A stretch of DNA of 64,000 nucleotides, taken from a virus. The position numbers were made by a program, and so were the translations under genes. This document shows, piece after piece, positions 27,147 through 57,953 of the stretch. The stretch is taken from IMG/VR virus record IMGVR_UViG_3300045988_126669, positions 33,217 through 97,216 of that record. One strand, written 5' to 3'. The notes beneath the pieces are model-generated. The model made no database searches and had not been told where the DNA came from. It saw nothing but the letters and a program-made list of their open reading frames with translations. Within the stretch, counting starts at the first letter, position 1. Each line of letters opens with the position of its first letter.

Positions 27147-27503
27147 TTAATAACCTGCTAATTTCATTATATAATCATAAGAAATAAGGTTTTCGTCGGT
27201 ATATGGAATCTCTATTAATCTAAAATCATGTAAAGCGCAAAAACGTCTTTTTTGATTATCATTATATTGCTACTGGTATAAACCGCGCTTTCCACCAAAT
27301 TTAGAACTGGCTTCATAATGCTATTTTCCCTAATACTCAATAATGAAATCAATTTTTCCATCATCATCAAATATAACAAAATCAAAACGAAGCGGACGCC
27401 CGCTTGGGCTTTTTAAATCTGGAAAGATGTATTCCATTTTAAAAGGTAGTCCTGCTTCTTCTAAGATTTCTTCAATTTTAATTTCTCCTCTTGAAGCACG
27501 CAC
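27147..27503 (-). CDS. free-standing PD-(D/E)xK (DUF559/Vsr-like) endonuclease-like protein, 118 aa, between terminase and portal
   Basis: GTG after a GGAGGG RBS. The motif RFDFVIFDDDGKIDFIIEYQGKQHY parallels the C-terminal domain of the gene at 57055. Has 3 in-frame TAGs. Confidence 0.45.
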
Positions 27504-27515
27504 TTTCCACCCTCC

Positions 27516-29255
27516 TTAATTTAAAAAGCACCAATCAGACGCATTAAACTTTTTACGTTTTTTCTTTTTATCTTCTTCAAGTTTTAAATAATATAATCCA
27601 TATTCAAAAGCCGAAAATTTATCTTTACGAATTCCGCGATTTGCCTATTTTAAAATAATATTAATACCTTCATTTTCTTCGCGTAAATTCATCATTTCTT
27701 CTTTTAATATGGAGGTTAAAGTAAATGGTTTTAAATAATCTGCCCTTTGTTCAGGAGTCATTTTTGAACCTTTTTGAGTAGCTAATAATTTTTCTTTAGC
27801 TGTTCTCTCATCTATTAAGAATTTTACCTTACCCGCTTGTAATTGAGTCTGAGCATTAGCATGACATTCAGTATTTATTGGAGCATTTGCTTTAATAACA
27901 TACATAGCATCAAATTGAGTATTTGGTGTGCGATATTTTTTATAATATCCATCATCATCATTCTCAACACCAAAATCAGGTAAAAATTCACCATCTTCAT
28001 CATTTTGAGATTTTACCATATAATCCAAAAGTCCAATACCTAAACCATTACCATCTATAACCAAAGTTTTAGCTTTATATTTATAAAATAATTTCTTTAA
28101 TTTAATAGCCTGATCTTCAAAATGATCATCTGACATAGTATACATATTTACTAAAGACTTAATAGCTGGACCTTGGGCTTGTGGTGTTACTTTAAATACA
28201 CAAACTACTGAATCGCATCCTTTACGACCTACATCTACAGAAAGTACATAATAAGCTTGTGCGCCCGCCCGTCCAGAAGCTTCATACTCAGGCTATAATA
28301 ATTTTCTATTTCTATCAAAATGCTCTCCATTAAAGAAAGCATCCTCAACAGTTCCTGACCACTTAGATTCATATTCACGTTCGAATGAAGCTTCATTATA
28401 AGTTCCTTCATTCTTTTGGTCAGTAATAAATGTTTTACTTTGTAATCCTACTGCAACCGGAGTTCGCCATGTTCCGCCCAATACCATACAACGATCAGGC
28501 TAAGTTACCATACGAACCAAGAAACCAATAAGTCTATCATAAGGGAATGTGCCCTTATAACCAGCAGTAGTAATATAGATTTGTGATTTGTTTAATGGCT
28601 CTTGTTCATTGGTAGTGCCATCTTTAGCTCTACGAGAAATTGCCATAACAGGAATAATAACTTCACGAAGAATAGCATCATCAATACCGACACATTCTTC
28701 CATTAGTCCACCATGACGACGCTGACCACGAGTGCTTTCACGGGCTGCGAGGTTATCCAAAACTGAACCATTTTTAAACACATATCTAACTTTATCTTTT
28801 CCTTCAAGAGTTTTTCCTCGACTCCAATCAATTTCTCGATTAAAGCTTGGAATAAGTTCACATATTTCTTGAACTTTATCATGAAGAATACTAGCACCTT
28901 GCTCTTTACCTCCAGAAGTAACGAACAAATGTGCGCCAGGATATAAAATACATCTAATCATCAATGCCATAACAGACAAAAATGATTTAGAATAAGCACG
29001 AGGAAAAACCGCATAAACATACTAATAACGCATAACAGAACGGAGAAATACTCTCTAATAAAAATAAAAATTAAATTCTCCATCTTTTATTTCAGTGCGT
29101 CTTCCTCGCACCATAAAATCTACAAATAAATCAGGATATTCTCTCCAAAAGGCAACGTATTTGCGGATAGTGGGCATTACCGCTTCTACTCGCTCCGGTG
29201 ATAAACCTATTTTTCTACGGCTATCACTTAACTACAGTAAATCTTGTAATGCCAT
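27516..29255 (-). CDS. terL: terminase large subunit (579 aa), TAG-recoded
   Basis: The N-terminus reads MALQDLLQLSDSRRKIGLSPERVEAVMPTIRKYVAFWREYPDLFVDFMVRGRRTEIKDGEFNFYFYQRVFLRS... with TAG=Q. Has an ATPase core and a C-terminal nuclease motif LVIDGNGLGIGLLD. Fragments 28500..28979, 28293..28487 and 27645..28145 are joined by verified in-frame TAGs. TAA at 27516. Confidence 0.85.
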
Positions 29256-30442
29256 TATTTATCTAAACCCTATAAGAACTCATTATCTTGCGCAGATTCC
29301 TATTCTTTAAATTCCTCAAAATCTGCGTAATCACTATCTTTGATAGTTTTTTCAAGTTCTTCAATACTTAAATCAGCATCATCAACGATATCGCTTTCCG
29401 CGTTCTTTGCTTTCTCTTCATCTTCTTTAGCATTTTCACGCAAAGCTTTTTCTACCATTGTGCTAATATTAGTTTCATCTTCAATAAGAGTGCGAGTATA
29501 ACGTTGCATATCTTGAATAGTTAAATCCACTTTATCATGTGGCTATTCAACATAATATCTTTCAATATATCCTTCTTTTTCACACAATTCAATTAATTCA
29601 CCAATTGAATCAACAAATTCACCTGATTCTGCTTTATTTTGAGCAGCAGTAAATTTACCAGACTTCATTAAGCTATCGTATACTTTGCTCATCTTTTGGA
29701 AACCTTCAATATCACCAATATCGATCAATTGATTTGCCTTTAAAGATGTCTTACATATTAGTTTTAGCGTATCTTTATGTCCGGCGCCTTGAATATCATA
29801 AGAAGCCATCATTTCTTCATATAACTATTCAAGTTTAACCCATTCTTCAGGTTTATAAGTTTTGCCCCATTTAAGTCTTAAATAAGTGCGGTCTTCATCA
29901 GTTAAATCTAATTCTTGTTCCACTTCACCACTCTATTGTGCGAAATAATCTTCCGTAGGGGCATCAGGCGGTGGAGCATAAACCGGCTCTTTTAATTCTC
30001 CTTCTGGAATAGTAATAGAACTTTTTTCAATAGCAGTTGCAATCTATTGAGCATCATACCCTTGACGTTTCATAGTTTGCTCTAATTTATTATTTGCCAT
30101 CTACTGTAAAAATTCTGTATCTTTCCAACGATAATCTTTAAACTATTTGAGTTTCATTTTTGACAAATAACGTCCAAGAATTGTCATACCGGTCATAGAC
30201 TGCGGATCGCGTCCATATTTTTCCATTAATTTATTCCATTCATCTGGAACATAAGGAACATCCGCTTCTTGTAAAATCCATAAATAAGTATCTGGATTCC
30301 AATTATCGACGTGCATTGTCATACATTTTTTGCACATGGGGAATTTACCATCATTAGGATATTTTTCTAAATTATTAGATGAATAAAATTCCGTGCCATT
30401 CATTGTGCGATTACATTTTTCGCAATAATATGTTTCAGCCAT
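29255..30442 (-). CDS. hypothetical packaging-module protein (395 aa; N-terminal zinc ribbon; possible small terminase)
   Basis: ATG 30442 with an AAAGGAG RBS. Three track ORFs share the frame. The TAA stop overlaps the terL ATG as TAATG. Confidence 0.4.
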
Positions 30443-30491
30443 AAATAAAAAATTCTCCTTTCAATTATTTATTATAAACAAAAGGACAATA

Positions 30492-32859: not shown

Positions 32860-33035
32860 AAACGTTGCTCGGCTCGCTGGCGGTAGTGGCGAGCCGAGTT
32901 TTATAAAAATCAGCAGTTTGCACAAATTTCTCGCCAAAACTTCGTCAAAGCGCACAATCGTCAAAATACCCGAAACTACGCCATCACATTTGTGTAAAAT
33001 GACTATTGACAATCCAGTAGCCATGTGCTATACTT
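32860..33035 (+). promoter_or_regulatory. module copy 0: GC hairpin (ctcggctcgc..gcgagccgag + TTTTAT), TTTGCACAAATTT box, then a TTGACA/TATACT promoter
   Basis: Shares hairpin + U-run, the ...TTTGCACAAATTTC... box and ...CAATCC/-10 with the copies at 36.4, 38.6, 40.6, 42.9, 45.2, 47.7 and 49.9 kb. Confidence 0.5.
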
Positions 33036-33066
33036 GTATCATCAAAAAGAAAGAGGTAAATCAACT

Positions 33067-33438
33067 ATGAAAACTATTATCAATTCTTTTATCAAGGTTG
33101 TCTTCATCATTCTTCCTCTTGTTGTTATTTTAGCTATTTCCGCGCTCAAAACTCCCGAGGCTATGGCTTGTGAGGAAGCGCCCCAGTCCTACGACCTCTC
33201 GGTCATTGAGAATTGGTGTGGTGCAGGCACGGAACGCGGAAGTATTCGTTTCGTCGGTGCAGAGGTCTACGCACGCGAGGGTGATACCCTGACGCTCATT
33301 GACGAGCAGGGCAATCTGTGGGACGTGGAAGCACTCAACATTGATGACAACGACTTCTTGCTCTTGTGGATTAACGACAATGACACTGATACTGTGGAAG
33401 ATGATACAATTATTAAGGTATGGAGAGAGGCTTATTAA
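33067..33438 (+). CDS. secreted/membrane-anchored small protein (123 aa, N-terminal signal/TM)
   Basis: Promoter TTGACA 33006 / TATACT 33029. AAAGAAAGAGG RBS. TAA stop. Confidence 0.55.
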   Translation: MKTIINSFIKVVFIILPLVVILAISALKTPEAMACEEAPQSYDLSVIENWCGAGTERGSIRFVGAEVYAREGDTLTLIDEQGNLWDVEALNIDDNDFLLLWINDNDTDTVEDDTIIKVWREAY

Positions 33439-33567
33439 GTCTCTCTCTTTCTTGCGGATCGGCGAAGATTGTTAAAAAATTAACAAGCAGAAAAGAGTAA
33501 AAAAGGTCTTGACAAATGTGCGGTAATGTGCTACAATGTAGATACAATAAGAAAGGGGAATACTCAA

Positions 33568-33858
33568 ATGACTAATCAGGATTTTTACAAGGCTCTCAAA
33601 GCAGAAAAGGAACGGTTAATGAACGAAAGCAAGCAGGCGTTCCGCGACTGTCAGGTTAAGCGTGGTGAGATGTCGAGGGCATGGCACGAGGTAGACGCGC
33701 TCGAACAGGCAAACAAGTTTGGCACACAGGAACTCAGCGACGCGTATGATGACTACGAGGAAGCCAGCCACGCAAGTATGTTAGCAGACAACTACCTCGA
33801 TGACATTGATGAAGCCATTGATAAGATAAATGAGCTGATAAGTCTTTACGCAGAATAA
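33568..33858 (+). CDS. hypothetical small protein (96 aa)
   Basis: TTGACA 33509-17-TACAAT 33532. GAAAGGGGAA RBS. Confidence 0.55.
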   Translation: MTNQDFYKALKAEKERLMNESKQAFRDCQVKRGEMSRAWHEVDALEQANKFGTQELSDAYDDYEEASHASMLADNYLDDIDEAIDKINELISLYAE

Positions 33859-33989
33859 GGGAGCAGTAATGCTCCCTTCCTAACGGCGTAGATTGTTAAA
33901 AAATTAACAAAGATTTTTTTCAAAAAGGTCTTGACAAATCAGTTAGAATGTGGTATTCTATAATCACAAAAAGGAAAGGGGAATGAAAA

Positions 33990-34199
33990 ATGATTTACGG
34001 CATTGTTTATTACACTAAGGGCGGTCAGGGCTATCTCTTCCAGCAGGCATTCGAGGAACAGCGCGCTATGGAGATTGCAGGTAAGATGAACGACTTACTT
34101 GCGACAGGTGCTACAATGTATAATGACAAGTCCTATGGCAAGCTCGACTTGCGGAATGTCGAGTATTTCACAGTTGAACCCAGTAGCGAAATGTATTAA
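33990..34199 (+). CDS. hypothetical small protein (69 aa)
   Basis: Own TTGACAA-N17-TATAAT promoter and an AAAGGAAAGGGG RBS. Confidence 0.55.
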   Translation: MIYGIVYYTKGGQGYLFQQAFEEQRAMEIAGKMNDLLATGATMYNDKSYGKLDLRNVEYFTVEPSSEMY

Positions 34200-34382
34200 G
34201 GGCGGGAGCGGGCTTCCCGCTCTTTCTCTTGCACCGTGGAGCGCGTGTAGGGCGTCCCAGCCCGAACTTTACCACAGTAAAGCGTTAAAGCAAAATTTTT
34301 TCCATTTTTTGCCAAAAACCACTTGACATTCCTATCCCGAAATGCTATAATAGTATCATCAAAGGAAAGGGGAATACAACAA

Positions 34383-34601
34383 ATGACTATCGAACAGATT
34401 ATGGAGACTTACAGCAAGGGCTATGACGTGATGATTGATGATGGATTCAACACTTGGACTCCCAGCGGGAACGATGAATGGGACGCATTAGATGAGTTTG
34501 GGTGGACTTGCACGAACAAGGAAGTCAATGAAGCGGGCATTAAGGGCATCGAAGTCTTACCGGAGAAAATCGTATTTGTCAAAGTTGGAAAAGAACTGTA
34601 A
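34383..34601 (+). CDS. hypothetical small protein (72 aa)
   Basis: Own promoter (ACTTGACA..TATAAT) and RBS. TAA. Confidence 0.55.
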   Translation: MTIEQIMETYSKGYDVMIDDGFNTWTPSGNDEWDALDEFGWTCTNKEVNEAGIKGIEVLPEKIVFVKVGKEL

Positions 34602-34681
34602 AAAAAATAAAAAAGGGACTTGACAAAAGCCCCTTTGTTTGGTATAATGAATACATCAAAAGAAAGAAAGAGGTAAATCAA

Positions 34682-34804
34682 ATGTCTACTCATGATGGTC
34701 TTGTTCTTCTCGCTATCTATGTTGGTGTTATCGGCGCGGGTGCGCTCATCGAATACATGGAGCACCGCGTAAAGAGAGCGATTCGCCATAGAAAGAGAAG
34801 TTGA
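34682..34804 (+). CDS. 40-aa single-pass membrane micro-protein
   Basis: Own promoter GACTTGACAAAAG..TATAAT and an AAGAGG RBS. TGA. Confidence 0.45.
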   Translation: MSTHDGLVLLAIYVGVIGAGALIEYMEHRVKRAIRHRKRS

Positions 34805-34912
34805 AAAACTTCTCTTTTTTTTTGAAAAAAACACTTGACATTCTTTGCGGTCTGTGGTATTATAATATCAGAAAGGGAAAGGAAAATCCCAAACACCAGA
34901 AAGGTTAATTCA

Positions 34913-35074
34913 ATGATTACTATCAAGACTCTTCTCGACGGCGTTCTTCCTGTCAAGCCCCTGGCCTATGTCCTCGGCGATGACTGGACGTATCTTTACT
35001 CCGACACCTATAAGGGTGTGGAGTTCGATGTCCACGCCTGCATGAATGGCGAGGTCGTCGCGGTGTTAAATTAA
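34913..35074 (+). CDS. hypothetical 53-aa protein
   Basis: Own promoter and RBS, then terminator 35073-35100. Confidence 0.5.
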   Translation: MITIKTLLDGVLPVKPLAYVLGDDWTYLYSDTYKGVEFDVHACMNGEVVAVLN

Positions 35075-35100
35075 GGGCTGAAAAGCCCTTAATTTTTTTT
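35073..35100 (+). terminator. intrinsic terminator aagggctgaaaagccctt + T9
   Basis: Perfect hairpin plus a U-run. Near-identical copies at 35338-35368 and 35691-35717. Confidence 0.65.
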
Positions 35101-35171
35101 ATAAAAACCCTTGACAAATCCAGAAGTAAGTGCTATACTATAATTACAGTAAAGAAAGGGGAAAACAAAAG

Positions 35172-35333
35172 ATGAAATACAGAGTTTACACCGAAGATAA
35201 TTACAGCACTCGCCTTGGCTACTATCTGCCGACTTACTTTAAGACTAAGAAAGAAGCGCAGGCGTATGCAAAGACCCTGACGAAGCCCGCGACCATTGAG
35301 CGGAAATTAGTCAATACGTGGGTCAAGTGCTAA
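35172..35333 (+). CDS. hypothetical 53-aa basic protein
   Basis: Own promoter CCCTTGACAAATCC..TATACT, an RBS and a terminator. Confidence 0.5.
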   Translation: MKYRVYTEDNYSTRLGYYLPTYFKTKKEAQAYAKTLTKPATIERKLVNTWVKC

Positions 35334-35437
35334 GAATAAGGGCTGAAAAAAGCCCTTATTTTTTTTTATAAAAACCCTTGACAAATCCAAAAGCAGATGG
35401 TATAATGTAAATACAATAAAGGAAGGGGATAAAAACC

Positions 35438-35692
35438 ATGACTACTTACAACATTCTTACTATTGGCACTTCTTCTGTTCCGAAGCTCGCGGGCAAATTC
35501 AACATCGCGGACACTGAAAACTTTCTCGACCGGTTAGAGGAAACGCTTTACATTCTCTTTGAATTAGAGCCGAAGTCCCGCGAATGGAGACGCGAATTTC
35601 TCAAACATCTTTCAGCGGACTTCACCTATCACTTTTGTGAAGATTCTCGCGTTGAAAAGTTAGGCAACAACATTATTGTTTATGAGAAATAA
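35438..35692 (+). CDS. hypothetical protein (84 aa)
   Basis: Own promoter, RBS and terminator. Confidence 0.55.
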   Translation: MTTYNILTIGTSSVPKLAGKFNIADTENFLDRLEETLYILFELEPKSREWRREFLKHLSADFTYHFCEDSRVEKLGNNIIVYEK

Positions 35693-35797
35693 GGGCGGAA
35701 ACGCCCTTATTTTTTTTCAAACTTTTTTCAAAAAAACTATTGACAAATCCCGAATCTATGGTATAATAAGAATATAAAAGGAAAGGGGATAAACCAA

Positions 35798-35989
35798 ATG
35801 TTATTTAATGTTTCTATCAACTACTACAACTACAAGGCAAGCGATGTATTCTATTATCGCCATGAAATTCCGGTGTTCGGGCGGGAAAACGCTTGTATCC
35901 TTGCAAAGAAGTTCATCGACGCGGACAACGTTGTTTCGGTCGATGTTATCGACGCACTGACCGGCGAAGTCATCGAGAGTTTGAACTAA
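35798..35989 (+). CDS. hypothetical protein (63 aa)
   Basis: Own promoter CTATTGACAAATCC..TATAAT and terminator 35993-36030. Confidence 0.55.
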   Translation: MLFNVSINYYNYKASDVFYYRHEIPVFGRENACILAKKFIDADNVVSVDVIDALTGEVIESLN

Positions 35990-36120
35990 AAAAAACTCGG
36001 CAGGATATACAAAATCCTGCCGAGTTTTTATACATTTTGCCTATTGACTTTTATTATAGCTCATGTTATACTATAATTGTTCCAAGGGGAACGACATTAA
36101 AAACGAAAGAGGTTGACAAA

Positions 36121-36360
36121 ATGACTTTGGGCATGGTTAAAAATGTGATTGGTCTGGTAAAAGGCGCACTGATGTTCTATGAGGGGAACGGCATTGAAGT
36201 GATAAATGAAAACACTTGCGGGCGCTATCTCAAAGACCGCAAAGGTCGCATGACTCTGAATGGTGAGGTTTTGGGCGTAAGCGAAGAATGGGTGCTGGGA
36301 TTGCCTGTCAGCGGTTTGAAAGCCAAAGATGATGTTCTTATCGTTTATGTTGACGGTTAA
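36121..36360 (+). CDS. hypothetical protein (79 aa)
   Basis: Promoter TTGACTTTTATTATAGCTCATGTTATACT. RBS GAAAGAGG. Terminator 36370-36405. Confidence 0.5.
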   Translation: MTLGMVKNVIGLVKGALMFYEGNGIEVINENTCGRYLKDRKGRMTLNGEVLGVSEEWVLGLPVSGLKAKDDVLIVYVDG

Positions 36361-36410
36361 AAAATAAAAATGAAAATCTCCCCAAAAATGGGGAGATTTT
36401 TTTGTGCATT

Positions 36411-36570
36411 TTACCTATTGACAATTTCAAAACTTTGTGGTATAATCGGCCGGCGCGCGAACGGACCTGGCGCGCCGAGTTTTTGTCAATAGGCAGATTC
36501 AACAAATTTTTGGGGCAAATTTTTGTGCAAAGTGTCAATAGACAGAATCCCGAATCGGTGCTATACTATA
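36411..36570 (+). promoter_or_regulatory. module copy 1: IR-flanked promoter (TTGACA 36418 / TATAAT 36441), GC hairpin 36447-36479 + U-run, TTTTTGTGCAAAG box, then promoter P2 (TAGACA 36539 / TATACT 36562)
   Basis: The 13-bp inverted repeat tgcctattgacaa / ttgtcaataggca brackets the first promoter and the hairpin. Confidence 0.6.
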
Positions 36571-36619
36571 ATCACAGTAAGGGAAGGAAAACCTACCAAA
36601 CCGGAAAGGGATTTACAAC

Positions 36620-36928
36620 ATGATTAACATTCGTTCTATTCTCAAACTCGCTGAAAATGACGGCCTGACTCTCAAATATGGCAAGAAAGTCAACTACAAG
36701 TCCGGCTGGCAGGTCGCTACCAACGGCGTTGAATGTAAGACCGCCCGCGAAGCTATTAACGCGGTTAAGGACTTCGGCGGAAACTGCGGTGTATGGCTTG
36801 CGAACGGCATCTATTATGTTGACAAGTCCAAGAGAGTGCAGACCAAAAAGCAGGCGCTTGAAATTGGCAAGGCGTGCAATCAAATCAGCGTATATGGCTG
36901 GGCGCGCGGGAATCTGGCCTACTGCTAA
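36620..36928 (+). CDS. hypothetical protein (102 aa)
   Basis: Driven by the module-1 promoter P2. TAA. Confidence 0.55.
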   Translation: MINIRSILKLAENDGLTLKYGKKVNYKSGWQVATNGVECKTAREAINAVKDFGGNCGVWLANGIYYVDKSKRVQTKKQALEIGKACNQISVYGWARGNLAYC

Positions 36929-37005
36929 AAAAAATTGCATATAGGGCTTGACAAAACAAGCCCTATATGCTACAATAAAAACATCAAAGGAAAGGGAGAA
37001 ACACC

Positions 37006-37278
37006 ATGGAAATTAAATATGCTTATGAAATGACGCGCAAAGCCGAAGAAGTCCGCAAAGAAATCCAAGCTAAAAATAATGCCCTCGCGCGTGCGTTTAT
37101 CGGAGACCACATCATGCCGGAAATTGAGCGTGTGGCAGGAACGGGAGAAACACTTTACGAGTGTTCTCTTGCTTCATTAAATGACAAGGGCGTCAGGCAG
37201 GCTTGCAAAGATATTATGCAGAATTATGGCTATAAAGCCAGCTACATTGACAACGTTCTTTCGATCTATTGGGGATAA
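37006..37278 (+). CDS. hypothetical protein (90 aa)
   Basis: Own promoter GGGCTTGACAAAAC..TACAAT. RBS AAAGGGAG. Confidence 0.55.
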   Translation: MEIKYAYEMTRKAEEVRKEIQAKNNALARAFIGDHIMPEIERVAGTGETLYECSLASLNDKGVRQACKDIMQNYGYKASYIDNVLSIYWG

Positions 37279-37379
37279 ATAAAGAGGGAAAATTTTTCCC
37301 TCTTTTTTCCAAAAAGCCCTTGACAAATTCAGAAACAGATGCTATAATAACAATACAATACAGGAAAGGGAATGTTATT

Positions 37380-37742: not shown

Positions 37743-37819
37743 AAAAAATAAGAAAAAGGGCTTGACAAAAAGCCCTTTTTCTGCTATACTTAATGTATCA
37801 AAGGAAAGGGGAATAAAAC

Positions 37820-47445: not shown

Positions 47446-47447
47446 AA

Positions 47448-47687: not shown

Positions 47688-47730
47688 AATAAAAAACTAC
47701 CCAAAATTGGGTAGTTTTTTTTGTCTATTT

Positions 47731-47919
47731 TGTCTATTGACAAACGCGGATTTTTGTGATAAAATGGGCGGACCGCCAGCGTACGCAGCGGTCCGAATTT
47801 TCCATTATATCACGCCCCGCCAATTTTGTCAAGAGAAAAATTGCACAAAAGTGAAGAAAATTTTTTCCCGTAATTTGGTTATTTTGTCAATTGCAATCTA
47901 CGGGCAATCTGCTATAATA
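47731..47919 (+). promoter_or_regulatory. module copy 6: promoter (TTGACA 47736 / TAAAAT 47759), GC hairpin 47765-47794 + AATTTTCCATTATATCAC, AAATTGCACAAAAG box, then P2 (TTGCAA 47891 / TATAAT 47914)
   Basis: Conserved blocks. Confidence 0.55.
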
Positions 47920-47923
47920 GATA

Positions 47924-48022
47924 ATGTCAGGAGGGAACAGTGAATTGCCGAACGGCTTCGCTGATGGGTGTGATAACTCGGTAACTGACCCGTTTTCAAA
48001 GAAATTTGAAATTCCCTCTTGA
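47924..48022 (+). CDS. leaderless micro-ORF MSGGNSELPNGFADGCDNSVTDPFSKKFEIPS
   Basis: The ATG is 5 nt after the -10 box. Confidence 0.3.
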   Translation: MSGGNSELPNGFADGCDNSVTDPFSKKFEIPS

Positions 48023-48051
48023 CAAGTAGTGCGAAAAGTGCTACAATAGAT

Positions 48052-48126
48052 AATGTCAAGAGGACAGAGCCGTTGTACGCTCAATTGTGAGATAAGAACT
48101 CTGAAAAAAATTTATAAAACCTCTTG
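48052..48126 (+). CDS. leaderless micro-ORF MSRGQSRCTLNCEIRTLKKIYKTS
   Basis: TTGACA 48018-17-TACAAT 48041, with the ATG 5 nt after the -10 box. Confidence 0.3.
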
Positions 48127-48157
48127 ACAAACCCCAGCGAGTGTGCTACAATAGAAA

Positions 48158-48277
48158 ATGTCGAGAGGGAGTAACCCAAGAAATCCGAGGGCGCGCGACT
48201 TTGAGAAAGTATAGGAAGTAAACATAATACACCACGTTGTAAAGCCAAACGTTGAACGCGAAAGTGAGTTTGATTGA
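48158..48277 (+). CDS. leaderless micro-ORF MSRGSNPRNPRARDFEKV(TAG)EVNIIHHVVKPNVERESEFD
   Basis: TTGACA 48124-17-TACAAT 48147, with the ATG 5 nt after the -10 box. Has an in-frame TAG. Confidence 0.25.
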
Positions 48278-48466
48278 ACCAACTATCCTTGACGCGGTTT
48301 TCCGCTGACAAATAGATTGAATCAACAAACAATAAATTATCCGTCAGGTCGGGGTAGTAATTCGTGTGAAAAGTTTGCGAAACCTCTTGACAAACACTCC
48401 AAAGTGTGGTATACTCAATAATATCAAAAGGGTAGCGACCTACCGCCAAAGAAAGGAATTGATACT

Positions 48467-48844
48467 ATGTCTACTTCTACTGTTAAGAAGCTCACCAAGC
48501 GCGACCGTTTCGAGGCTCTGCTCAAACTGTCCGAGGTTCAGGCTGACCCTGCTATGGTTGAGTTTATCAACCACGAAATCGACCTGCTGTCCCGCAAGAA
48601 CGCCGGTGACAAGAAGCCGACCGCGAATCAGATTGCCAACGACGGCTACAAGGACATTATCTTTGCCGAGCTGTCCGCGAATCCTGACAAGCTGTATACC
48701 GTGACCGAACTCATCAAGAACGTGGACGGTCTGGGCGACCTCACCAATCAGCGCGTTTCCGCTCTTCTGCGTCAGATGATTGAAGCGAACGGCGTCGAGA
48801 AGATTGTGGACAAGCGCAAGTCCTACTTCCGTCTCGCCCACTGA
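48467..48844 (+). CDS. hypothetical protein (125 aa), paralog of 45788..46168
   Basis: Promoter CTCTTGACAAACAC..TATACT. Terminator 48850-48890. Confidence 0.6.
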   Translation: MSTSTVKKLTKRDRFEALLKLSEVQADPAMVEFINHEIDLLSRKNAGDKKPTANQIANDGYKDIIFAELSANPDKLYTVTELIKNVDGLGDLTNQRVSALLRQMIEANGVEKIVDKRKSYFRLAH

Positions 48845-48944
48845 TTCAGGGGGAGCGCCTGAAAAAAATCAGGCGCTCCCAAAAATTTCTCTTGACATTT
48901 GCTGACGGCGGTGTTATAATCATACTTGAAAGGGGGCAAAAGAA

Positions 48945-49352
48945 ATGCCTAAAATGAGTAAAAAAGACTTTCAGGCAAAGATTGATAATCTGATGAAAAA
49001 GTTAGATTGTACTGCCGAGGAAGCAAAAGAAATTCTCATGGACGATGATGACATTGACCATGGAATCGCCAAGGACTTTGACCTGTCCGCGGAAAAGCTC
49101 AAAGAAGCTAACAAGTATTCTAAAACCGGAACACGCAAAGCGCCGACCGCTTATAAGTTTGAGAAGCGACAGCGCAAGGAAAACCCCACAAAACGCTCGA
49201 TTATTGCTGAACTTGCGACTTTTTTGCGAGAAAACAGCGAAAATGCGTGCGAAAATGTGGAAATCACGAACATTGAGCGCATGATTGCGTTCCATGTGGG
49301 CGAAAATGACTATGAATTGACCCTGATTCAGAAGCGAAAGCCCAAAAATTGA
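48945..49352 (+). CDS. hypothetical protein (135 aa)
   Basis: Promoter TCTCTTGACATTTG..TATAAT. RBS AAAGGGGG. Terminator 49355-49398. Confidence 0.55.
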   Translation: MPKMSKKDFQAKIDNLMKKLDCTAEEAKEILMDDDDIDHGIAKDFDLSAEKLKEANKYSKTGTRKAPTAYKFEKRQRKENPTKRSIIAELATFLRENSENACENVEITNIERMIAFHVGENDYELTLIQKRKPKN

Positions 49353-49475
49353 CAAAAAAGGGTGAAAAACCGCTGAAAAATGCGGTTTTTCACCCAAAAA
49401 CAAGTCAAAAAATGCAAAAAATAATGGTTGAGAGAACGATGGTAAACCTCAATCAATAGAGAGGATTTTGTGCCG

Positions 49476-49886
49476 ATGGAAGAAATTACTATTAAGCTAC
49501 GCCGATTTAAGGACGGCAGACCGCCCGTTTCAATGGAGTTTATGCCTAATTGTGGCGAGAATCTGAAAGACGTTCAAGCGGTCTACTTTTTCAAGTTTTA
49601 CAACAACAACAAACTTGAATTTAACAAGGTAGGCACTTCCGCAAAAGACGTTGTAGGGCGTTTGCGTGATGAAATTGGCGAGTATGCAAAAAAGTATGCT
49701 ATCACGCGCGTTGAAATTCATCGAATCCGTTCTTGCGGGGATTATCCCGCCGAGGGCGCGGAAAGCGCGTTGCGTGCGGAACTGATTAGACGCTATCCCA
49801 AAGCGTTCCGCAAGAATGACCGCTTTTTTAATGTGGACATTAACCCCACGGTTTTCGATGAAATTGTAAACGCATTTCTTGCATAA
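49476..49886 (+). CDS. hypothetical protein (136 aa)
   Basis: The 5'UTR has the conserved hairpin gttgagagaacgatggtaaacctcaatc (identical core to the one at 46258). Terminator 49895-49930. Confidence 0.5.
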   Translation: MEEITIKLRRFKDGRPPVSMEFMPNCGENLKDVQAVYFFKFYNNNKLEFNKVGTSAKDVVGRLRDEIGEYAKKYAITRVEIHRIRSCGDYPAEGAESALRAELIRRYPKAFRKNDRFFNVDINPTVFDEIVNAFLA

Positions 49887-49937
49887 ATATTCAATCAGCA
49901 GGTTGACTAAAACCTGCTGATTTTTTTTGTGCATTTT

Positions 49938-50010
49938 GCCTATTGACACCGATCGGAAAATGTGGTATAATGGCCGGGCCGTCGCGGGACGTGCCGGCCC
50001 GATTTCCCGA
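49938..50010 (+). promoter_or_regulatory. module copy 7 (first half only): promoter (TTGACA 49943 / TATAAT 49966) + GC hairpin 49972-50001, flanked by CCGATCGG repeats
   Basis: Same promoter-hairpin arrangement. The downstream part diverges (CATATG inverted repeats). Confidence 0.45.
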
Positions 50011-50280
50011 TCGGTATACCCATATGCAAAATTTCTCATACTTCTAGCACCTCTCCATATGGCCCAAAAAAATCCCGAAAATTGACTTTTTATAAAAAAT
50101 ATGTTATAATGATAAAAAAAGACTTTTTTAAGCCCGCGTAGGATCATATGCCTTTATGATTAATTAAAAACTGCTTCGCCCTTACATTGTTTCACGCGTA
50201 TGTTTTCATTTAAAAAAATCTTGACATTTTTAAAAAAAAAGTATATAATATATATAGAAAATAAGAAAAGAGGTATTCAT

Positions 50281-50658
50281 ATGGATATGAATGATATTAT
50301 TGCTCGTCTGAAAAATGGTGAGGACGCTCAGGCTATTGCGGACGAAATGGCTAAGTCTCTGAACGATGCGGTTAAGCAGGTGGAGAAGGAAACCAAGCAG
50401 GCCGATCGGAAGACCGCGCTCGCGCAAGAAATCGCCGATCGGATTAACGAGTATGCCGCTCTTAATGGCTACAAGGATTCCGCGTTGACCGCGTCCGATG
50501 TGGAGAACATCTTTGCTGAGGTTTACGGTCTTATGACCGGGGTTAACGATCTTCTTGACGTGCTTTTTCCCAAGAGCACCCCGGTAAAGGTTAAGAAGGT
50601 CAAGAAAACCGATGATGATGTAATTGCCGAATTTTTGAACACTTTCATTAATAAGTGA
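50281..50658 (+). CDS. hypothetical protein (125 aa)
   Basis: Promoter TTGACA 50221-17-TATAAT 50244. RBS AAGAGG. Terminator 50735-50765. Confidence 0.55.
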   Translation: MDMNDIIARLKNGEDAQAIADEMAKSLNDAVKQVEKETKQADRKTALAQEIADRINEYAALNGYKDSALTASDVENIFAEVYGLMTGVNDLLDVLFPKSTPVKVKKVKKTDDDVIAEFLNTFINK

Positions 50659-50762
50659 ACAATGTGTAGGGTGAGATATTTTTCATCCTAAGAATCGACA
50701 ATTTCACCAAGAATTGCCTAATATGAAAAAAGAGAGACTAAAAAAAGTCTCTCTTTTTTTTT

Positions 50763-50907
50763 AGGTTCGGAGAACGGAGACGGGAAAATGTGGTTGGTGG
50801 TTGATTAAACCGATCGGCACCACACTCTCGCAATTTCTACGATTTCAACAATTTTAACCCGTCTCTTATGTTTACCTTACGGTAAAGATACATAGTATCC
50901 GAACCTT
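50763..50907 (+). ncRNA. structured ~145-nt element (nested stems ggttcgga/tccgaacc, gagacggg/cccgtctc, tttacc/ggtaaa) at the early-region/island boundary
   Basis: Long-range perfect complementarity. It follows a strong terminator. No ORF. Not a tRNA cloverleaf. Confidence 0.3.
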
Positions 50908-51049
50908 TTATTCCACGTCTTCCGAATTGTCCAAACCTTTAATTATTATCCAGAAGCGAATCAACCAATATAGATCTATTATCGATCTCTTCCAGCGTTC
51001 CATATGCAATATCCAACAGCAACACCAATTAAAAACCAAATAATACCAC

Positions 51050-51831: not shown

Positions 51832-52536
51832 TTACTCCTTATTTTTCTTGTAATCATTTCTAAATACATATTCTTTTTTAAGCCCTTCTATATTGCACTA
51901 TGGCTTATATAAAGTAATTAAAGCTAATTCCATTGCTTCTAAATCTCTTACTGTAATATTAAAATCAGTCTTTAAATTTTCAACTATAATTAAAGGTTTT
52001 AACATAATAGTTCTATTACTTTCTTTAGCTGACTATAATATTTTATATAATTCAGTTTTATCTTCAAAATTTCTACTATTCATAAACTATTTATGCTATC
52101 CAAATCTTGTTCCAAAATTTTTATTTGTTTTACCAATATAAATTAAAATATTATCTATATAAATACCATAAATACCGTGCTAATAATAAAGAGGATCTTT
52201 AGTCTAACGTCTCTTTTTAACTGAAGATTCTTCCACCTAACCTGGAATTTTCTTTTTAATTACTTTATATTTTCGAGGAACTTCTCTTTTAATTATCTGC
52301 TATTCTTCTTTTTGTTGTGATAATTTAGTTAAAGATAAATATTCTCTTATAGTTTTTTCTTTTGTTAAAATATAAGAATCTTTTATATCATATTTACTTC
52401 TATCTTTTTCTATATCTTCTATAATATCATTATAATTTTCATTATTAGACATTCTTTCTAATAAAATATATGTGTCATTCCGTATACTATGACCTATTAT
52501 TTTTTCCCATTCTGCTTTTAACATTTGTTTATTCAT
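51832..52536 (-). CDS. GIY-YIG homing endonuclease-like protein (234 aa, ~9 in-frame TAG)
   Basis: ...YYQHGIYGIYIDNILIYIGKTNKNFGTRFGQHK... matches the GIY-x10-YIG + Arg motifs, followed by ...LEAMELALITLYKPQCN (Glu/Asn). Continuous only with TAG=sense. Confidence 0.6.
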
Positions 52537-52559
52537 CACCTTTTGTTCATTTATAAGTC

Positions 52560-52765
52560 TTGCAAAAACTGTAGATTTTTTGCAAACTTGTTTGCAAAAA
52601 TTCCTTAAATTGCAAATTTGCAAACTTGTTTGCAAAAATTTTGCATTTTTGTATATTATATATTGCTTTGTGCAAAATGCAAAAATCATTGTAAATTGCA
52701 CAAATTTGTAATTGCAAATTGTTGCAATATTGCAAGTTTTGCAACAAAATTTTTGCAAAATTGCA
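52560..52765. repeat. dense array (>15 copies) of palindromic TTTGCAAA / TTGCAA(A/T) motifs
   Basis: gcaaaaactgtagattttttgcaaacttgtttgcaaaaattccttaaattgcaaatttgcaaacttgtttgcaaaaattttgca...attgcacaaatttgtaattgcaaattgttgcaatattgcaagttttgcaacaaaatttttgcaaaattgcaa. Intergenic between the HTH gene and the GIY-YIG gene. Confidence 0.7.
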
Positions 52766-52766
52766 A

Positions 52767-53168
52767 TTAAAATACAAATTCTATATCTTTTTCCTTACGC
52801 TTTTTCCATCCTTCACTATGATCTACAGAACTTTTACTAATACCCAACTCTTCAGATATCTAAGTAGAATTCATACCATTTTTAGCTAAATTATAAATTT
52901 CATTATCATCAACTACTCTTTTACGACCATAATTATTTCCATTATTTATTTTATTTATATAGTCCTATTTACTTTTTTCAATAGCACCTTTAACAAAATT
53001 CAAACCCATAGCAACAACAGGGTCATCTTGAAATTGAGGTTCATTACCGGTTCCATATTGAACCATATCATATATAATTTTCATTTGTTGTTCATTAGGT
53101 AAGCCTTTAATGTTTTCTAACCACTCGCCATAAAATACAAATCTATGTAAATCCTTTGTATTATCCAC
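52767..53168 (-). CDS. HTH DNA-binding protein (133 aa; HTH NSTQISEELGISKSSV), 2 TAG
   Basis: GTG after a GGGAGGG RBS. I walked the frame through TAGs at 52965 and 52860 to TAA 52767. Confidence 0.5.
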
Positions 53169-53361
53169 GCGGTTTCCCCTCCCCCTAAACCTCCTCAAAG
53201 TCAGCTAAAAAGCTCTCATCGACGGAGAATATCCAACAATTATATTGCGGGAACTTCGGGTTCGGCATCATCTACAAAGGGAAATGTCCTCTTTCCACTA
53301 ATTTTTCCATTACTTTAAGAGAATATACTATCATATTCTTCTTTGTATTTTGATTTTCCAT
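53161..53361 (-). CDS. hypothetical 66-aa protein (2 TAG)
   Basis: RBS AAGGAAGG + ATG. Exactly 67 codons to TAA. Confidence 0.35.
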
Positions 53362-53378
53362 TTGTTCAATACCTTCCT

Positions 53379-53513
53379 TTATTTGCTATGATTTGCTATA
53401 TATTCTTTAAGCGCTTGTCTTACAATATAAGACAAACTCAAATCTAATTCTTTCCCCATCTCAGTGAGAATATCTTTATCACTCTATGAAATTCTAATTG
53501 TCATAGTAGTCAT
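53379..53513 (-). CDS. ribbon-helix-helix (CopG/Arc-like) regulator, 44 aa
   Basis: MTTMTIRISQSDKDILTEMGKELDLSLSYIVRQALKEYIANHSK is a beta-strand followed by two helices. One TAG. Confidence 0.5.
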
Positions 53514-53599
53514 ATCACCATTATTCAATTTATTCACATCCTTTCATTAATACATAAAAATACTTCTTACAACTTTATCTTAATTTGTCCTACAAAATT

Positions 53600-53678
53600 A
53601 TTCTTTATTGATTTTTATTAAATTTTAATATATAATATAAATATAAAATAAAGAAAAACTATTAAAGGTGATAAAAAA
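53600..53678 (+). promoter_or_regulatory. AT-rich promoter region (TTGATT..TATATAATATAAATATAAAATAAAG) for the rightward third block
   Basis: Related to the class-III modules at 56.4, 59.6, 60.7 and 62.7 kb. Confidence 0.35.
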
Positions 53679-53876
53679 ATGCTTGCTAAACTTATTGATA
53701 ATCAAGGTCAAACTCATATCCTTAATACGACTCATATTCATTCAATTTCCGTAAAGAATTCTGGATCGGATAAACTTGTGATGATTTTTTGGGATAATGA
53801 AGCAAAAACCGCGTATTATGTAAGACCCACTGAGTATAGCACTTTTATCAATACTATTTTTAAGGAGGACAAGTAA
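53679..53876 (+). CDS. hypothetical protein (65 aa)
   Basis: RBS AAAGGTGA. Confidence 0.5.
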   Translation: MLAKLIDNQGQTHILNTTHIHSISVKNSGSDKLVMIFWDNEAKTAYYVRPTEYSTFINTIFKEDK

Positions 53877-53877
53877 T

Positions 53878-54216
53878 ATGTCTGTTGATTTTGGTTCTAA
53901 GCTCGTATGCGGTTATAAAGTCCCCAAGAACCTTCTCGAAAACTATGATAATATGGCTGAGGCTATCGAACAGCTTACCGAGGAAGGTTATTGGCATCGC
54001 GCAAGCGATTATGATAACGACGAGAATCCTATCTTCGGCTATCTTCTCGGTGAGTCTTCCGCAGGTGAAGCCGTCCGCATTGACAATATCTTCATCGCTC
54101 CACAGGAATATTATCGCCTTAATGACACAATGAAGGAAGCTTATGCAAAGTTTCTCAAAATCCCCATCGAAAGTCTTGATGATCCTGAGATTTTTCTAAT
54201 CTCTACAATTTCTTAA
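53878..54216 (+). CDS. hypothetical protein (112 aa)
   Basis: RBS AAGGAGGA. Operon-style spacing. Confidence 0.55.
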   Translation: MSVDFGSKLVCGYKVPKNLLENYDNMAEAIEQLTEEGYWHRASDYDNDENPIFGYLLGESSAGEAVRIDNIFIAPQEYYRLNDTMKEAYAKFLKIPIESLDDPEIFLISTIS

Positions 54217-56334: not shown

Positions 56335-56375
56335 TCTTTAAAGGATTTGCGTAAACCGCAAATCCTTTTTTGATT

Positions 56376-56435
56376 TTTTATAAAAAATAATATATAATAT
56401 ATATATAAAGTAAAGAAAGAAAGGAAATAAAAATT
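56376..56435 (+). promoter_or_regulatory. class-III AT-rich promoter module TTTTATAAAAAATAATATATAATATATATATAAAGTAAAGAAAGAAAGG
   Basis: Near-identical ~45-nt blocks at 59588, 60678 and 62695, each directly after a terminator and before an RBS+ATG. Confidence 0.45.
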
Positions 56436-56756
56436 ATGACTACTTCTAATTCTAAGATTAAAACTCATTCCATTGGTATTCTTTGTGATACGGCCGGAGA
56501 CCATAATTTCTATTTCCTGAATGCGTCCGAGGCTGATATGCAGGAAATGTTTATGGAATATTGTCGAGATATGGTCGATGATAGTCTTATGGAGCGTCAG
56601 TTCGAAATGATTCAGAAAGATTCCGATTATGATTGGTATCTTTACCACGGTGAGATGACCGGCGAATGGACAAGGAGATTTTCTTCTTATCTCGATATGA
56701 TGAACGAGGTCGCAAATGATGTTTTCATTGATTTCGTTGATGCGGTTGAAATGTAA
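56436..56756 (+). CDS. hypothetical protein (106 aa)
   Basis: Follows the class-III module. Confidence 0.55.
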   Translation: MTTSNSKIKTHSIGILCDTAGDHNFYFLNASEADMQEMFMEYCRDMVDDSLMERQFEMIQKDSDYDWYLYHGEMTGEWTRRFSSYLDMMNEVANDVFIDFVDAVEM

Positions 56757-56767
56757 GGAGAATAACT

Positions 56768-57043
56768 ATGAAAGAAATTACTTGTTATAAAATCGAAGAT
56801 GAAATGACTGGTAAGTCTTGGACATTCGCCAACATCTCTGAGGCAGAAGCGGAAGAACTTTATCTTGCTTTCCTCGAAGGCGCAATCGAAGAAGATATTA
56901 TGGAAACTCAGCGAATTGAATATTACGATCTTCCTCTTCCTGCTCCTGATTGGTGGAAGATCGATCATCGAGAAGAGGTTGATAAACTTCTTCTTATGGA
57001 TGGCGAGTTCTATATGTATAAATTTAATGCTTACGCATTTTAA
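56768..57043 (+). CDS. hypothetical protein (91 aa)
   Basis: RBS AAGGAGAATAACTATG. Confidence 0.5.
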   Translation: MKEITCYKIEDEMTGKSWTFANISEAEAEELYLAFLEGAIEEDIMETQRIEYYDLPLPAPDWWKIDHREEVDKLLLMDGEFYMYKFNAYAF

Positions 57044-57054
57044 GGAGGATATAA

Positions 57055-57953
57055 ATGGGAAAATATAAAGATATAAGTGGTTAGAAATTTGGACGTCTAA
57101 CTGCTTTAGAAATAGATGTAGAAAAAACTAAAACACATAGTTCTACTTATTGGAAATGTTAGTGTGATTGTGGTAATATAAAGAGTATTAGTTTAAATAG
57201 ACTAAGAAATGGTAGCACCAAATCCTGCGGTTGTTATAGGAAAGAAGTAGCAAGTAATAATACCAAAAAAGATTTAGTAGGCCAAAAATTTGGACGTTTA
57301 ACTGTTATTAAAGATTCTGGTAAGAGAAAAGATAACCGTATTATTTGGGAATGCCAATGCGAATGTGGTAATATTGTTTATTATCCAACTAACAATTTAA
57401 CCACTGGAAATGCATAGTCTTGTGGGTGTTTACATAAAGAAATAGTAGCTAATTTAACTAAAAAAGATTTAACTGGTTAGCGTTTTGGTAAATTAACTGT
57501 ATTATTTGAACAATCTGAAAGAAAAAATAATCGTATTATTTGGCATTGTCGATGTGATTGTGGTAATGAATGTGATACTTCAAGTAAATCTTTATTAAGT
57601 GGAAGAAAAATTTCTTGTGGTTGTTTAAAAACATCTCTTGGAGAATACCGCATAAGTAATATTTTATCTGAAAATAATATTGCTTATATTAAGGAATATA
57701 AATATAAAAATTTAGGTAATTTAAGATATGACTTTTATTTACCTGATTATAATAGATTAATTGAATTTGACGGAGAACAACATTTTATGGAAGTTCCTAC
57801 TTGGGGAGAATTAGAAGCTACACAAAAACGAGATAAAATAAAAAATGATTATGCTTTATCTCATAGTATTCCTTTAGTAAGGATCCCTTATTGGGAACGT
57901 GATAACATTACTTTAGACTTATTACTTGGTAATAAATATTTACAAAAGGAGTG
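57055..57953 (+). CDS. homing-endonuclease-like protein (299 aa): three zinc-ribbon repeats (GQ[KR]FG[RK]LT..W.C.C[DE]CGN..SCGC) + a C-terminal PD-(D/E)xK DUF559/Vsr-like domain; 4 in-frame TAGs at 57082, 57160, 57415, 57478
   Basis: RBS TAAGGAGGA + ATG. There is no ORF in the standard code. With TAG=Gln the three repeats align, with CAA Gln at the equivalent position (57283). The C-terminus reads RYDFYLPDYNRLIEFDGEQHF. Confidence 0.6.

Follow-up and report, generated by a model that had tools for sequence, protein, structure and literature searches.

Homing endonucleases are commonplace in phages, and both the EDxHD family and its free-standing members are already known. T4 endonuclease II (EndoII, DenA) is a single-domain enzyme of ~136 amino acids (aa) whose early role in infection is to break down unmodified host DNA, and HNH endonucleases encoded beside terminase genes are reportedly needed for DNA packaging. 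Here, a 64-kb window (the whole stretch of DNA analysed, positions 33,217 to 97,216 of the IMG/VR virus record IMGVR_UViG_3300045988_126669) was studied for three nuclease genes: g1, which lay between the genes for the terminase large subunit (TerL) and the portal protein; g2, of the GIY-YIG type; and g3, which combined zinc-ribbon repeats with a nuclease domain. The genes g1 and g2 were on the minus strand and g3 was on the plus strand, and all three contained in-frame TAG codons (3, 8, and 4, respectively). A first-pass annotation had regarded all three as free-standing homing endonucleases, and each ORF was confirmed at the position which it had given. That status was borne out for g3 by an allele series at an exact site and a mosaic neighbouring gene; it was only plausible for g2, and it failed for g1, which was found in 78 of 78 relatives under low ratios of non-synonymous to synonymous substitution (dN/dS). 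Three statuses were distinguished: g3 appeared to be a mobile homing endonuclease, g2 a swappable accessory nuclease, and g1 a fixed core gene. We consider it likely that these three statuses, together with an origin of the window in a gut phage of roughly 190 kb whose late genes use TAG for glutamine, give the best joint explanation of the data.

The EDxHD (Vsr-like) homing endonucleases include the free-standing Hef enzymes of T-even phages (PMC3239194). In I-Bth0305I, D196 is the metal-binding Asp and H213 the general-base His of this family; the isolated nuclease domain was shown to dimerise, and it was proposed that specificity for the central 14 bp of the target comes mostly from the nuclease domains (PMC3239194). 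Both g3 and g1 resembled this system in having Vsr-like nuclease domains with a conserved Asp/His/Asp set, which in g3 had the same 17-residue Asp-His spacing, and both differed from described EDxHD homing endonucleases in carrying TAG as a sense codon. A role of recoding in the timing of such enzymes has also been proposed, for a recoded endonuclease of a group I intron that lies in an early gene of the TGA-recoded Agate phages, whose production would be delayed until late infection (Borges et al., bioRxiv 10.1101/2021.08.26.457843).

The reading of TAG as glutamine was directly proven at the codon level. Columns 58, 61, 78, and 79 of g1 were occupied solely by TAG, CAA, or CAG across 45 distinct nucleotide versions from relatives, and the contig MT836163 had natural Gln codons at all three TAG sites of the window g1; in-frame TAG at Gln positions, as is usual for genes of code-15 recoded phages, was thus found in g1. 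In g3, TAG fell in the "G-Q-K/R-F-G" and "C-Q-C" motifs of the repeats, where sister repeats of the same protein used CAA. None of the 46 genes checked ended in TAG, and long open reading frames (ORFs) existed in the minus-strand module (53-31547) only if TAG was read through. The loci of relatives are labelled with L-numbers. Public relatives with 85-99% nucleotide (nt) identity were located on viral contigs of 97-196 kb. The distant relatives were MT836163, which is an unannotated gut contig, the Enterococcus phages H1, EF1, and VRE9, Phass-1, which was placed by NCBI in the "Caudoviricetes code 15 clade", and Geobacillus virus E3.

The g3 gene and its insertion site

Comparison of the alleles gave good support to g3 as a genuine free-standing homing endonuclease that may be active or was recently active. 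Its insertion point coincided exactly with the start codon of a metallophosphoesterase gene. The site was empty in L009-L014 and L016, seven close relatives in which the 91-aa gene was followed by TAAGGAGGATATAA-ATG and then directly by the metallophosphoesterase; the empty-site sequence of L009 and L016 contained TAAGGAGGATATAAATGATTCCTGGACTTTATGAAATC. Three other relatives (L006-L008) carried a paralogue at the same site, which was 38% identical to g3 and had the same architecture, a GC content of 29%, and 10 TAG codons. Presence/absence polymorphism at a precise site, a trait of free-standing homing endonucleases, was therefore found for g3, with seven empty sites, three occupied by the paralogue, and exact junctions. 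A new ribosome-binding site at the 3' end of g3 served the phosphoesterase gene. Homologues with 60-68% identity to g3 were found in the more distant L103, L104, and L106, each immediately upstream of a Metallophos gene.

The phosphoesterase itself was a mosaic. Its first 75 aa were 68% identical to those of the distant endonuclease-carrying L103 and only 49-54% identical to those of the close empty-site relatives, whereas the pattern was reversed in the remainder (59% to L103 and 77-83% to the close empty-site relatives). The 5' ~75 codons were thus an allele travelling with the endonuclease gene (MNLPG... versus MIPGLYEIF...). Judged from these sequences, the mosaic is the classical signature of co-conversion, or of a linked resistant allele, that accompanies free-standing homing endonucleases, and among the three genes it was found for g3 only.

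By composition, g3 was foreign to its surroundings. Its GC content was 28%, compared with 34-38% in the neighbours, and its GC content at third codon positions (GC3) was 12%, compared with 27-32%. Four of its 10 Gln-type codons were TAG, whereas 0 of 55 were in the 24 co-oriented neighbouring genes (Fisher p = 3e-4), so that g3 was the sole TAG-bearing gene in a TAG-free operon block.

The mosaic pattern suggests that the g3 nuclease would cut within the 5' ~200 nt of the endonuclease-free metallophosphoesterase allele. Repair from an endonuclease-carrying genome would then copy in g3 together with the first ~75 phosphoesterase codons. The gene apparently has no promoter of its own and uses the ribosome-binding site and ATG by which the phosphoesterase gene starts in empty-site genomes. 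A terminator-like and sigma70-like promoter site was located at 56340-56398, and no g3-specific promoter was found by the consensus scan, which is weak evidence. The series of empty, occupied, and paralogue-occupied alleles in public metagenomes was unusually clean, and it defines a target region for cleavage.

The product of g3 is predicted to be bipartite, with a triple zinc-ribbon module for DNA binding and, at its C-terminus, a Vsr-like EDxHD nuclease. Profile matches were obtained to phrog_374 (Table 1) and phrog_559 (1.3e-40), PHROG families that are annotated as HNH or homing endonucleases, and more than 7,400 homologues were found. An alignment of 40 homologues displayed invariant Cys ladders in the three repeats. 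In 39-40 homologues, D226, E237, H243, and D260 were invariant, and E197 was conserved in at least 90%. The AF2 models of this study were made on the database proteins P0001 and P0178 (99% and 97% identical) in place of Gln-substituted sequences. The top PDB match of the g3 model (pLDDT 90) by Foldseek was 3r3p, the catalytic domain of I-Bth0305I, at a probability of 1.0 and a target-normalised TM-score of 0.66; the Vsr structures 1vsr and 1cw0 came next. The D226-H243 spacing of 17 equalled the D196-H213 spacing of I-Bth0305I. The g3-family profile gave only spurious uL23 matches against the PDB and missed 3r3p, so the residue mapping to I-Bth0305I rests on spacing and fold, with no residue-level superposition. 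These results upheld the earlier assignment of a zinc ribbon plus a nuclease for g3. The label PD-(D/E)xK, which had been given to both g1 and g3, was right at the level of the fold superfamily, and the domains are more precisely Vsr-like EDxHD domains. Like I-Bth0305I, g3 had an N-terminal DNA-binding part and then the nuclease, and like the Hef enzymes it was free-standing. Unlike I-Bth0305I, it was not in an intron, and its DNA-binding part consisted of three zinc-ribbon repeats of the phrog_374 type instead of NUMOD2/HTH.

The proposed timing of g3 follows from its position. The gene sits in what appears to be an early operon, which is otherwise free of TAG. Because the first TAG of g3 was codon 10 and the gene apparently lacked its own promoter, full-length g3 would be made only after TAG suppression becomes active. 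Late expression of g3 once suppression is active was a reasonable inference from the sequence, as the first-pass annotation had proposed for all three genes. Two points weigh against this timing: the "early" status of the plus-strand block was deduced from TAG avoidance and weak promoter-like matches, and tRNA and Rfam scans gave no match in the 64-kb window, so that no suppressor tRNA was found there. It is also quite possible, although the chance seems somewhat below even, that the TAG codons of g2 and g3 have no regulatory role and reflect neutral CAG/CAA-to-TAG drift in very AT-rich and weakly selected genes. Two observations were consistent with such drift: the TAG content of endonuclease genes tracked the genome in which they reside, with 0 TAG in L073 and L106, and the AT bias of g2 and g3 was extreme (GC3 12-16%). 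However, all 24 neighbours in the g3 transcriptional block avoided TAG, and the first TAG of g3 came as early as codon 10. The avoidance by the neighbours implies selection against TAG in this block, and g3 would consequently be untranslatable in full before suppression, whatever the origin of its TAG codons.

Late production of g3 would parallel the Agate phage intron endonuclease, since in both cases reassigned stop codons occur in an otherwise standard-code early region and the same delay until the late code switch is proposed. The two differ in that the Agate gene is intron-borne and uses TGA as Trp, whereas g3 is free-standing, intergenic, of the EDxHD family, and uses TAG as Gln. Beyond the Agate case, population presence/absence and co-conversion evidence was available for g3, and the published idea that recoding gates the production of selfish nucleases until late infection can be directly tested with the g3 allele series.

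A circulation of such elements among recoded phages had also been suggested by the first-pass annotation, and this was correct in part. TAG-bearing endonuclease genes were found in the recoded relatives L006 (the paralogue), L058, L060, L103, and L104. However, the L106 copy of the g3 lineage had no TAG, and neither did the hotspot endonuclease gene of L073, which belongs to a lineage with TAG-free TerL and g1. Because of these two copies, we conclude that the TAG content of an endonuclease gene follows the code of its resident genome, with no closed circulation pool, and neither the g3 lineage nor the hotspot genes were confined to recoded genomes.

Two features of the paralogue in L006-L008 were also observed. 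It had its own leader (4969-5058), in which a GC-rich hairpin (CCCGGTTGAATAATCGGG) was accompanied by a TATAAT-like box, and the window g3 had no such leader. The paralogue also had a TAG where the alignment places the near-invariant Glu (E197) of g3.

An exchangeable GIY-YIG cassette

The g2 gene is predicted to encode a GIY-YIG nuclease that is nearest to T4 EndoII and has an atypical domain order. Its 57 homologues were metagenomic, and the family kept G121, Y123, G124, Y133, G135, R144, E203, and N215 (the GIY/YIG/Arg/Glu/Asn residues) invariant. PF01541 (GIY-YIG) was matched by 22 of 51 family members, and g2 itself was below the threshold. By phmmer, the sole significant PDB match was T4 EndoII (2wsh, E 0.0023), and by Foldseek the AF2 model (pLDDT 82) had 2wsh as its top match, followed by the UvrC GIY-YIG domain and Hpy188I. 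The top match in the viral structure library BFVD was the Endonuclease II of Pseudomonas phage PspYZU05, and the profile match was to phrog_1111 (1.3e-5). The earlier GIY-YIG call was confirmed by these invariant residues, family-level Pfam matches, and EndoII/UvrC fold matches. No match was obtained when g2 was searched with tblastn against 50,697 phage records.

The protein consisted of a confident N-terminal helical domain of ~70 aa, a disordered linker rich in Lys and Glu, and the catalytic domain at the C-terminus (residues ~115-220). The catalytic domain was common to the family and was combined with at least three different N-terminal modules; in g2, the helical domain is probably for DNA binding. 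Compared with T4 EndoII, which was the best match by both sequence and fold, g2 shared the GIY-YIG core with equivalents of the invariant Tyr/Tyr/Arg/Glu/Asn residues, but had the extra conserved helical domain and the long linker in a protein of 234 aa. It also differed from I-TevI and the Seg enzymes, in which the catalytic domain is N-terminal and is followed by NUMOD/IENR1 tails; Pfam scans found no NUMOD in g2. The canonical GIY-YIG layout was seen in the relatives' genes of L060 and L073.

Among the eleven close relatives, g2 was found only in L016 and L017, so that it was also polymorphic in presence and absence. It was located in a small, minus-strand, TAG-using island of low GC content between two plus-strand blocks. 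The homology with all other close relatives broke at 51840-51844, within ~10 nt of the g2 stop codon, and resumed at 53160-53878; the intervening genes were unrelated and TAG-bearing. The L017 cassette was 99% identical to that of the window although its flanks were only 81-88% identical, which suggested a recent lateral spread of the g2 cassette. Homologues of g2 also occurred in the same island of the distant L098 and L100, and a gene for a DUF6291-HTH protein adjoined the g2 homologues in L016, L017, and L100. Together with this gene and a TTGCAA array upstream of its own start, g2 is carried in a cassette that is exchangeable between phages. The array is probably an operator or iteron array. 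Arrays of this kind recurred in L016 and L017 and also in L100 and L101, which are distant, in each case alongside the DUF6291-HTH gene; the array was absent in L098 and in the relatives without g2.

Two explanations were considered for the role of g2. The first is that it is a cassette-linked nuclease, which would probably be homing-like or directed at competitor or host DNA, and nuclease-driven homing is plausible from the distribution described above. It is weakened by the lack of the canonical domain order and the NUMOD modules of GIY-YIG homing enzymes, and ordinary recombination at a hypervariable locus could be the source of the patchiness of g2 without any nuclease-driven homing. The second explanation, which is possible but which we hold to be the less probable, is that g2 is not a homing enzyme, and either acts like EndoII (DenA) against host or competitor DNA or takes part in replication or regulation with the DUF6291-HTH protein and the TTGCAA array. 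Its nearest relatives in sequence and fold were T4 EndoII and a phage Endonuclease II, its domain order was the reverse of that in I-TevI and Seg, and it was always found in the same island beside a DNA-binding gene and a repeat array. On the other hand, g2 was dispensable, since most close relatives lacked it, its N-terminal domains were swapped within the family as in modular homing enzymes, and the cassette of L017 was almost identical amid divergent flanks. The eight TAG codons argue against early translation of g2. We keep g2 as an accessory nuclease of an exchangeable cassette, for which nuclease-driven spread is plausible and an EndoII-like, regulatory, or replicative role is possible.

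Two differences among the close relatives were observed at the border of the island. The segment 53160-53678 was 99% identical to L006, L007, and L009, compared with about 88% for the adjoining sequence, and it resembles a patch of recent recombination at the border of the hypervariable island. A 65-aa ORF (53679-53876, plus strand) was a clean indel of ~200 bp; L010, L011, and L013 had this ORF, and L006-L009, L012, L014, L016, and L017 lacked it.

A fixed nuclease gene between terL and the portal gene

The first-pass annotation had described g1 as a mobile gene wedged between terL and the portal gene. This description did not survive the comparison: g1 was found between TerL and the portal in each of the 78 IMG/VR relatives with a locus spanning the junction, so that no close relative without g1 was available to define an insertion point, whereas an exact insertion point was obtained for g3 and a cassette break for g2. 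The same order was kept in MT836163 (TerL/g1/portal identities of 60/70/56%), Enterococcus phage H1 (47/50/30%), and Phass-1 (45/38/39%), and the synteny was also found in the Enterococcus phages EF1 and VRE9. TerL of the window shared 47% identity with the annotated TerL of Enterococcus phage H1 and 46% with that of Geobacillus virus E3; the latter phage had no g1, and its TerL-portal gap was only 30 bp. The dN/dS of g1 was 0.03-0.10 with saturated synonymous sites, and g1 was often better conserved than TerL. Its database matches comprised more than 3,000 clusters, and the top 120 were nearly all 117-118 aa in length with 84-99% identity. The three genes had also been described as AT-rich and laden with TAG, which was true for g2 (GC 23%) and g3 but not for g1, whose GC content (32%) and TAG fraction (0.5) were like those of the portal gene and TerL. 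The number of TAG codons in g1 followed that in TerL, down to zero in the TAG-free lineages of the clade, and the TAG codons of g1 are best read as ordinary late-gene recoding. By these comparisons, purifying selection on g1 is strong, and the gene is a fixed member of the core rather than a current mobile insert.

The fold of g1 is predicted to be Vsr-like, as indicated by its alignment to the g3 nuclease domain (28% identity, E 2e-11) and its matches to phrog_9084 ("homing endonuclease", 1e-26) and phrog_559. The 118 aa made up the nuclease domain only, and this lack of a DNA-binding part, together with its fixation, set g1 apart from EDxHD homing endonucleases. The predicted active site (E7, D41, E57, H63, and D83) was kept in all 32 distinct orthologue proteins. 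We also considered that g1 is catalytically dead, because its "ExDG" motif reads "EYQG". This was rejected, since the Asp that is essential in Vsr and I-Bth0305I is that of the upstream "RFDF", a conserved residue, and the variable "x" of the motif is where Q, N, or D occurs (PMC3239194). The Enterococcus-phage orthologues had a His at the first Glu position, and catalytic competence may therefore vary across the g1 family.

The most economical reading of these sequences is that a homing endonuclease was inserted between terL and the portal gene in a remote ancestor and became what would now be a constrained core gene of the packaging module. The variation at the first Glu counts somewhat against this reading, and so does a 600-bp tract at 27225-27825, which covered the TerL 3' end and g1 and was 85-91% identical to L091 although its flanks were only 60-76% identical. 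This tract hints at some lateral exchange, and a "purely vertical" history of g1 may be too strong a statement. A rival explanation is that g1 is still selfish: it would have been fixed by drive and kept by repeatedly cutting variant terL/portal alleles of co-infecting relatives (marker exclusion), without serving the phage. This would agree with the intact catalytic residues of all 32 variants, the L091 tract, and the portal 5' end directly downstream of g1, which was the most divergent stretch in all comparisons (57-61% identity). The dimerisation and the proposed target specificity of the isolated I-Bth0305I nuclease domain (PMC3239194) would also allow a stand-alone domain to act in this way. 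However, there were no empty sites among the 78 relatives, the divergence of g1 tracked that of TerL and the portal down to 45% TerL identity, and g1 had no DNA-binding module. We regard continued selfishness as somewhat unlikely, and an ancient insertion turned core gene remained the preferred reading.

A more specific proposal, which is tentative and on balance unlikely, is that g1 is a domesticated EDxHD/Vsr-like nuclease and an obligatory, conserved part of the terL-portal packaging module, with a role in maturation, packaging, or inter-phage competition. The analogy is to the HNH packaging nucleases, which g1 resembled in its small size, stand-alone form, presumed homing-endonuclease ancestry, and conservation next to terL/portal. 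Unlike these, g1 is Vsr-like and not HNH, and the conserved position next to terL is the sole trait that is actually shared. The replacement of a degenerate TerL nuclease by g1 was considered unlikely, since TerL kept the typical nuclease-domain motifs (VDVG... and IDGNGLG) when inspected by eye. If g1 is indeed domesticated, this would span a very abundant clade of ~140-200-kb Firmicutes/gut phages with either the recoded or the standard code, some of which are culturable Enterococcus phages. In any case, g1 is a fixed and highly constrained nuclease in the packaging module of this widespread clade, and its culturable Enterococcus members add to its value, alongside the clean g3 allele series and the codon-level proof of TAG as glutamine.

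The first-pass annotation had also called the terL-portal junction an endonuclease hotspot, and relatives agreed with this. An HNH_3+NUMOD4 gene interrupted the TerL 3' end in L058 (5757-6599), a GIY-YIG gene was located between TerL and g1 in L060 (5802-6533), and a GIY-YIG+NUMOD1 gene was located between g1 and the portal in L073 (6165-6836). An ORF-less insert of ~250 nt, possibly an intron, split TerL in L097 (4294-4544). The mobile endonuclease genes at this hotspot are additional genes beside g1. Two other inserts were observed. L080 (5735-7269) had a two-gene insert including a nucleotidyltransferase-like protein, and in L005 (Enterococcus phage EF1, 857-3965) an HNH homing endonuclease, annotated as such ("Phage intron"), lay amid the fragments of a split TerL; the EF1 record is a sign that terL is a target for endonuclease genes in the wider clade too.

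The existence of this true hotspot bears on the view that g1, g2, and g3 are all currently selfish, mobile homing-endonuclease genes circulating specifically among TAG-recoded phages. All three had nuclease domains of endonuclease families and in-frame TAG, and further TAG-bearing endonuclease genes occurred in recoded relatives (L058, L060, and the L006 paralogue with its 10 TAG codons). Against this, g1 was fixed and was also present in standard-code Enterococcus phages, with dN/dS below 0.1, and the copies in L106 and L073 had zero TAG. We find this view highly improbable and retain three distinct statuses for the three genes.

Recoding itself varied among the TerL loci L018-L097. L064-L078, L083-L086, and L092 had 0 TAG in TerL and g1, and there were also lineages with as many as 14 TAG in TerL, so recoding has been gained, lost, or graded inside this phage clade.

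Other features of the window

The features are collected in Table 1. The profile searches that had been suggested as a check gave PHROG matches for g1 and g3 and family-level Pfam matches for g2, and they also confirmed the identities of TerL and the portal protein. Single-sequence Pfam scans gave nothing above gathering thresholds for g1, g3, TerL, and the portal protein (for g1, DUF2726 was just below the cut-off at 23.6 bits), and phmmer searches against PDB sequences gave nothing for g1, g3, and TerL. No further endonuclease-like gene was found in the window by tblastn with seven endonuclease queries. The promoter/terminator consensus scan of the window yielded 50 sites, compared with 39±7 in shuffled sequences; this was not an enrichment, and single sites are a weak hint only.

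Table 1. Coordinates of the nuclease genes and their neighbours in the window
Feature	Position	Strand	Details
Portal protein	25484..27133	-	11 TAG; phrog_2739 5.5e-80
g1, stand-alone Vsr-like (EDxHD) nuclease domain, predicted	27147-27503	-	GTG start 7 nt after AAGGAGG; 118 codons, 3 in-frame TAG, TAA stop
Terminase large subunit (TerL)	27516..29255	-	6 TAG; phrog_2 5.7e-20; TAA stop overlaps g1 ribosome-binding site
g2, N-terminal helical domain, disordered K/E-rich linker, C-terminal GIY-YIG nuclease (EndoII-like), predicted	51832-52536	-	234 codons, 8 in-frame TAG, GC 23%
TTGCAA array upstream of g2, about 12-15 palindromic cores	52537..52766		230-bp intergenic; 14/28 of the window's TTTGCAA matches
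Sigma70-like promoter match inside the TTGCAA array	52683-52655	-	weak consensus scan
DUF6291 + HTH protein, cassette partner of g2	52767..53219	-	3 TAG; PF19808 7.5e-15, HTH_7 5.8e-4
91-aa gene upstream of the g3 insertion site	56768..57043	+	0 TAG, GC 38%; conserved in relatives with and without g3
Upstream junction, TAAGGAGGATATAA + ATG	57041..57057	+	starts g3 here and the phosphoesterase in empty-site relatives (junction sequences)
g3, whole gene	57055-57954	+	299 codons, 4 in-frame TAG, TGA stop
g3, predicted N-terminal DNA-binding region, three zinc-ribbon repeats (FGRLT...WxCxCxCGN...SCGC)	57055..57624	+	invariant Cys columns; phrog_374 2.6e-63, three matched stretches; AF2 pLDDT 90
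g3, predicted C-terminal EDxHD/Vsr-like nuclease domain (E197, D226, E237, H243, D260)	57625..57954	+	Foldseek to I-Bth0305I, Vsr
Calcineurin-like metallophosphoesterase	57960..58697	+	0 TAG; PF00149 1.7e-7

The composition of the window was split between the small, TAG-free, plus-strand ORFs at 33000-51000, which had a GC content of 40-47%, and the TAG-recoded late module at 1-31500, which had 27-31%. The largest recoded ORF (6578-14905, minus strand) comprised 2775 codons with 84 in-frame TAG and was the most heavily recoded gene in the window. Four structural-module genes of the minus strand (16884-17867 and 21152-23873) had 0 TAG and a GC content of 35-40% within the recoded late region; they possibly encode the most highly expressed virion proteins, which avoid TAG.

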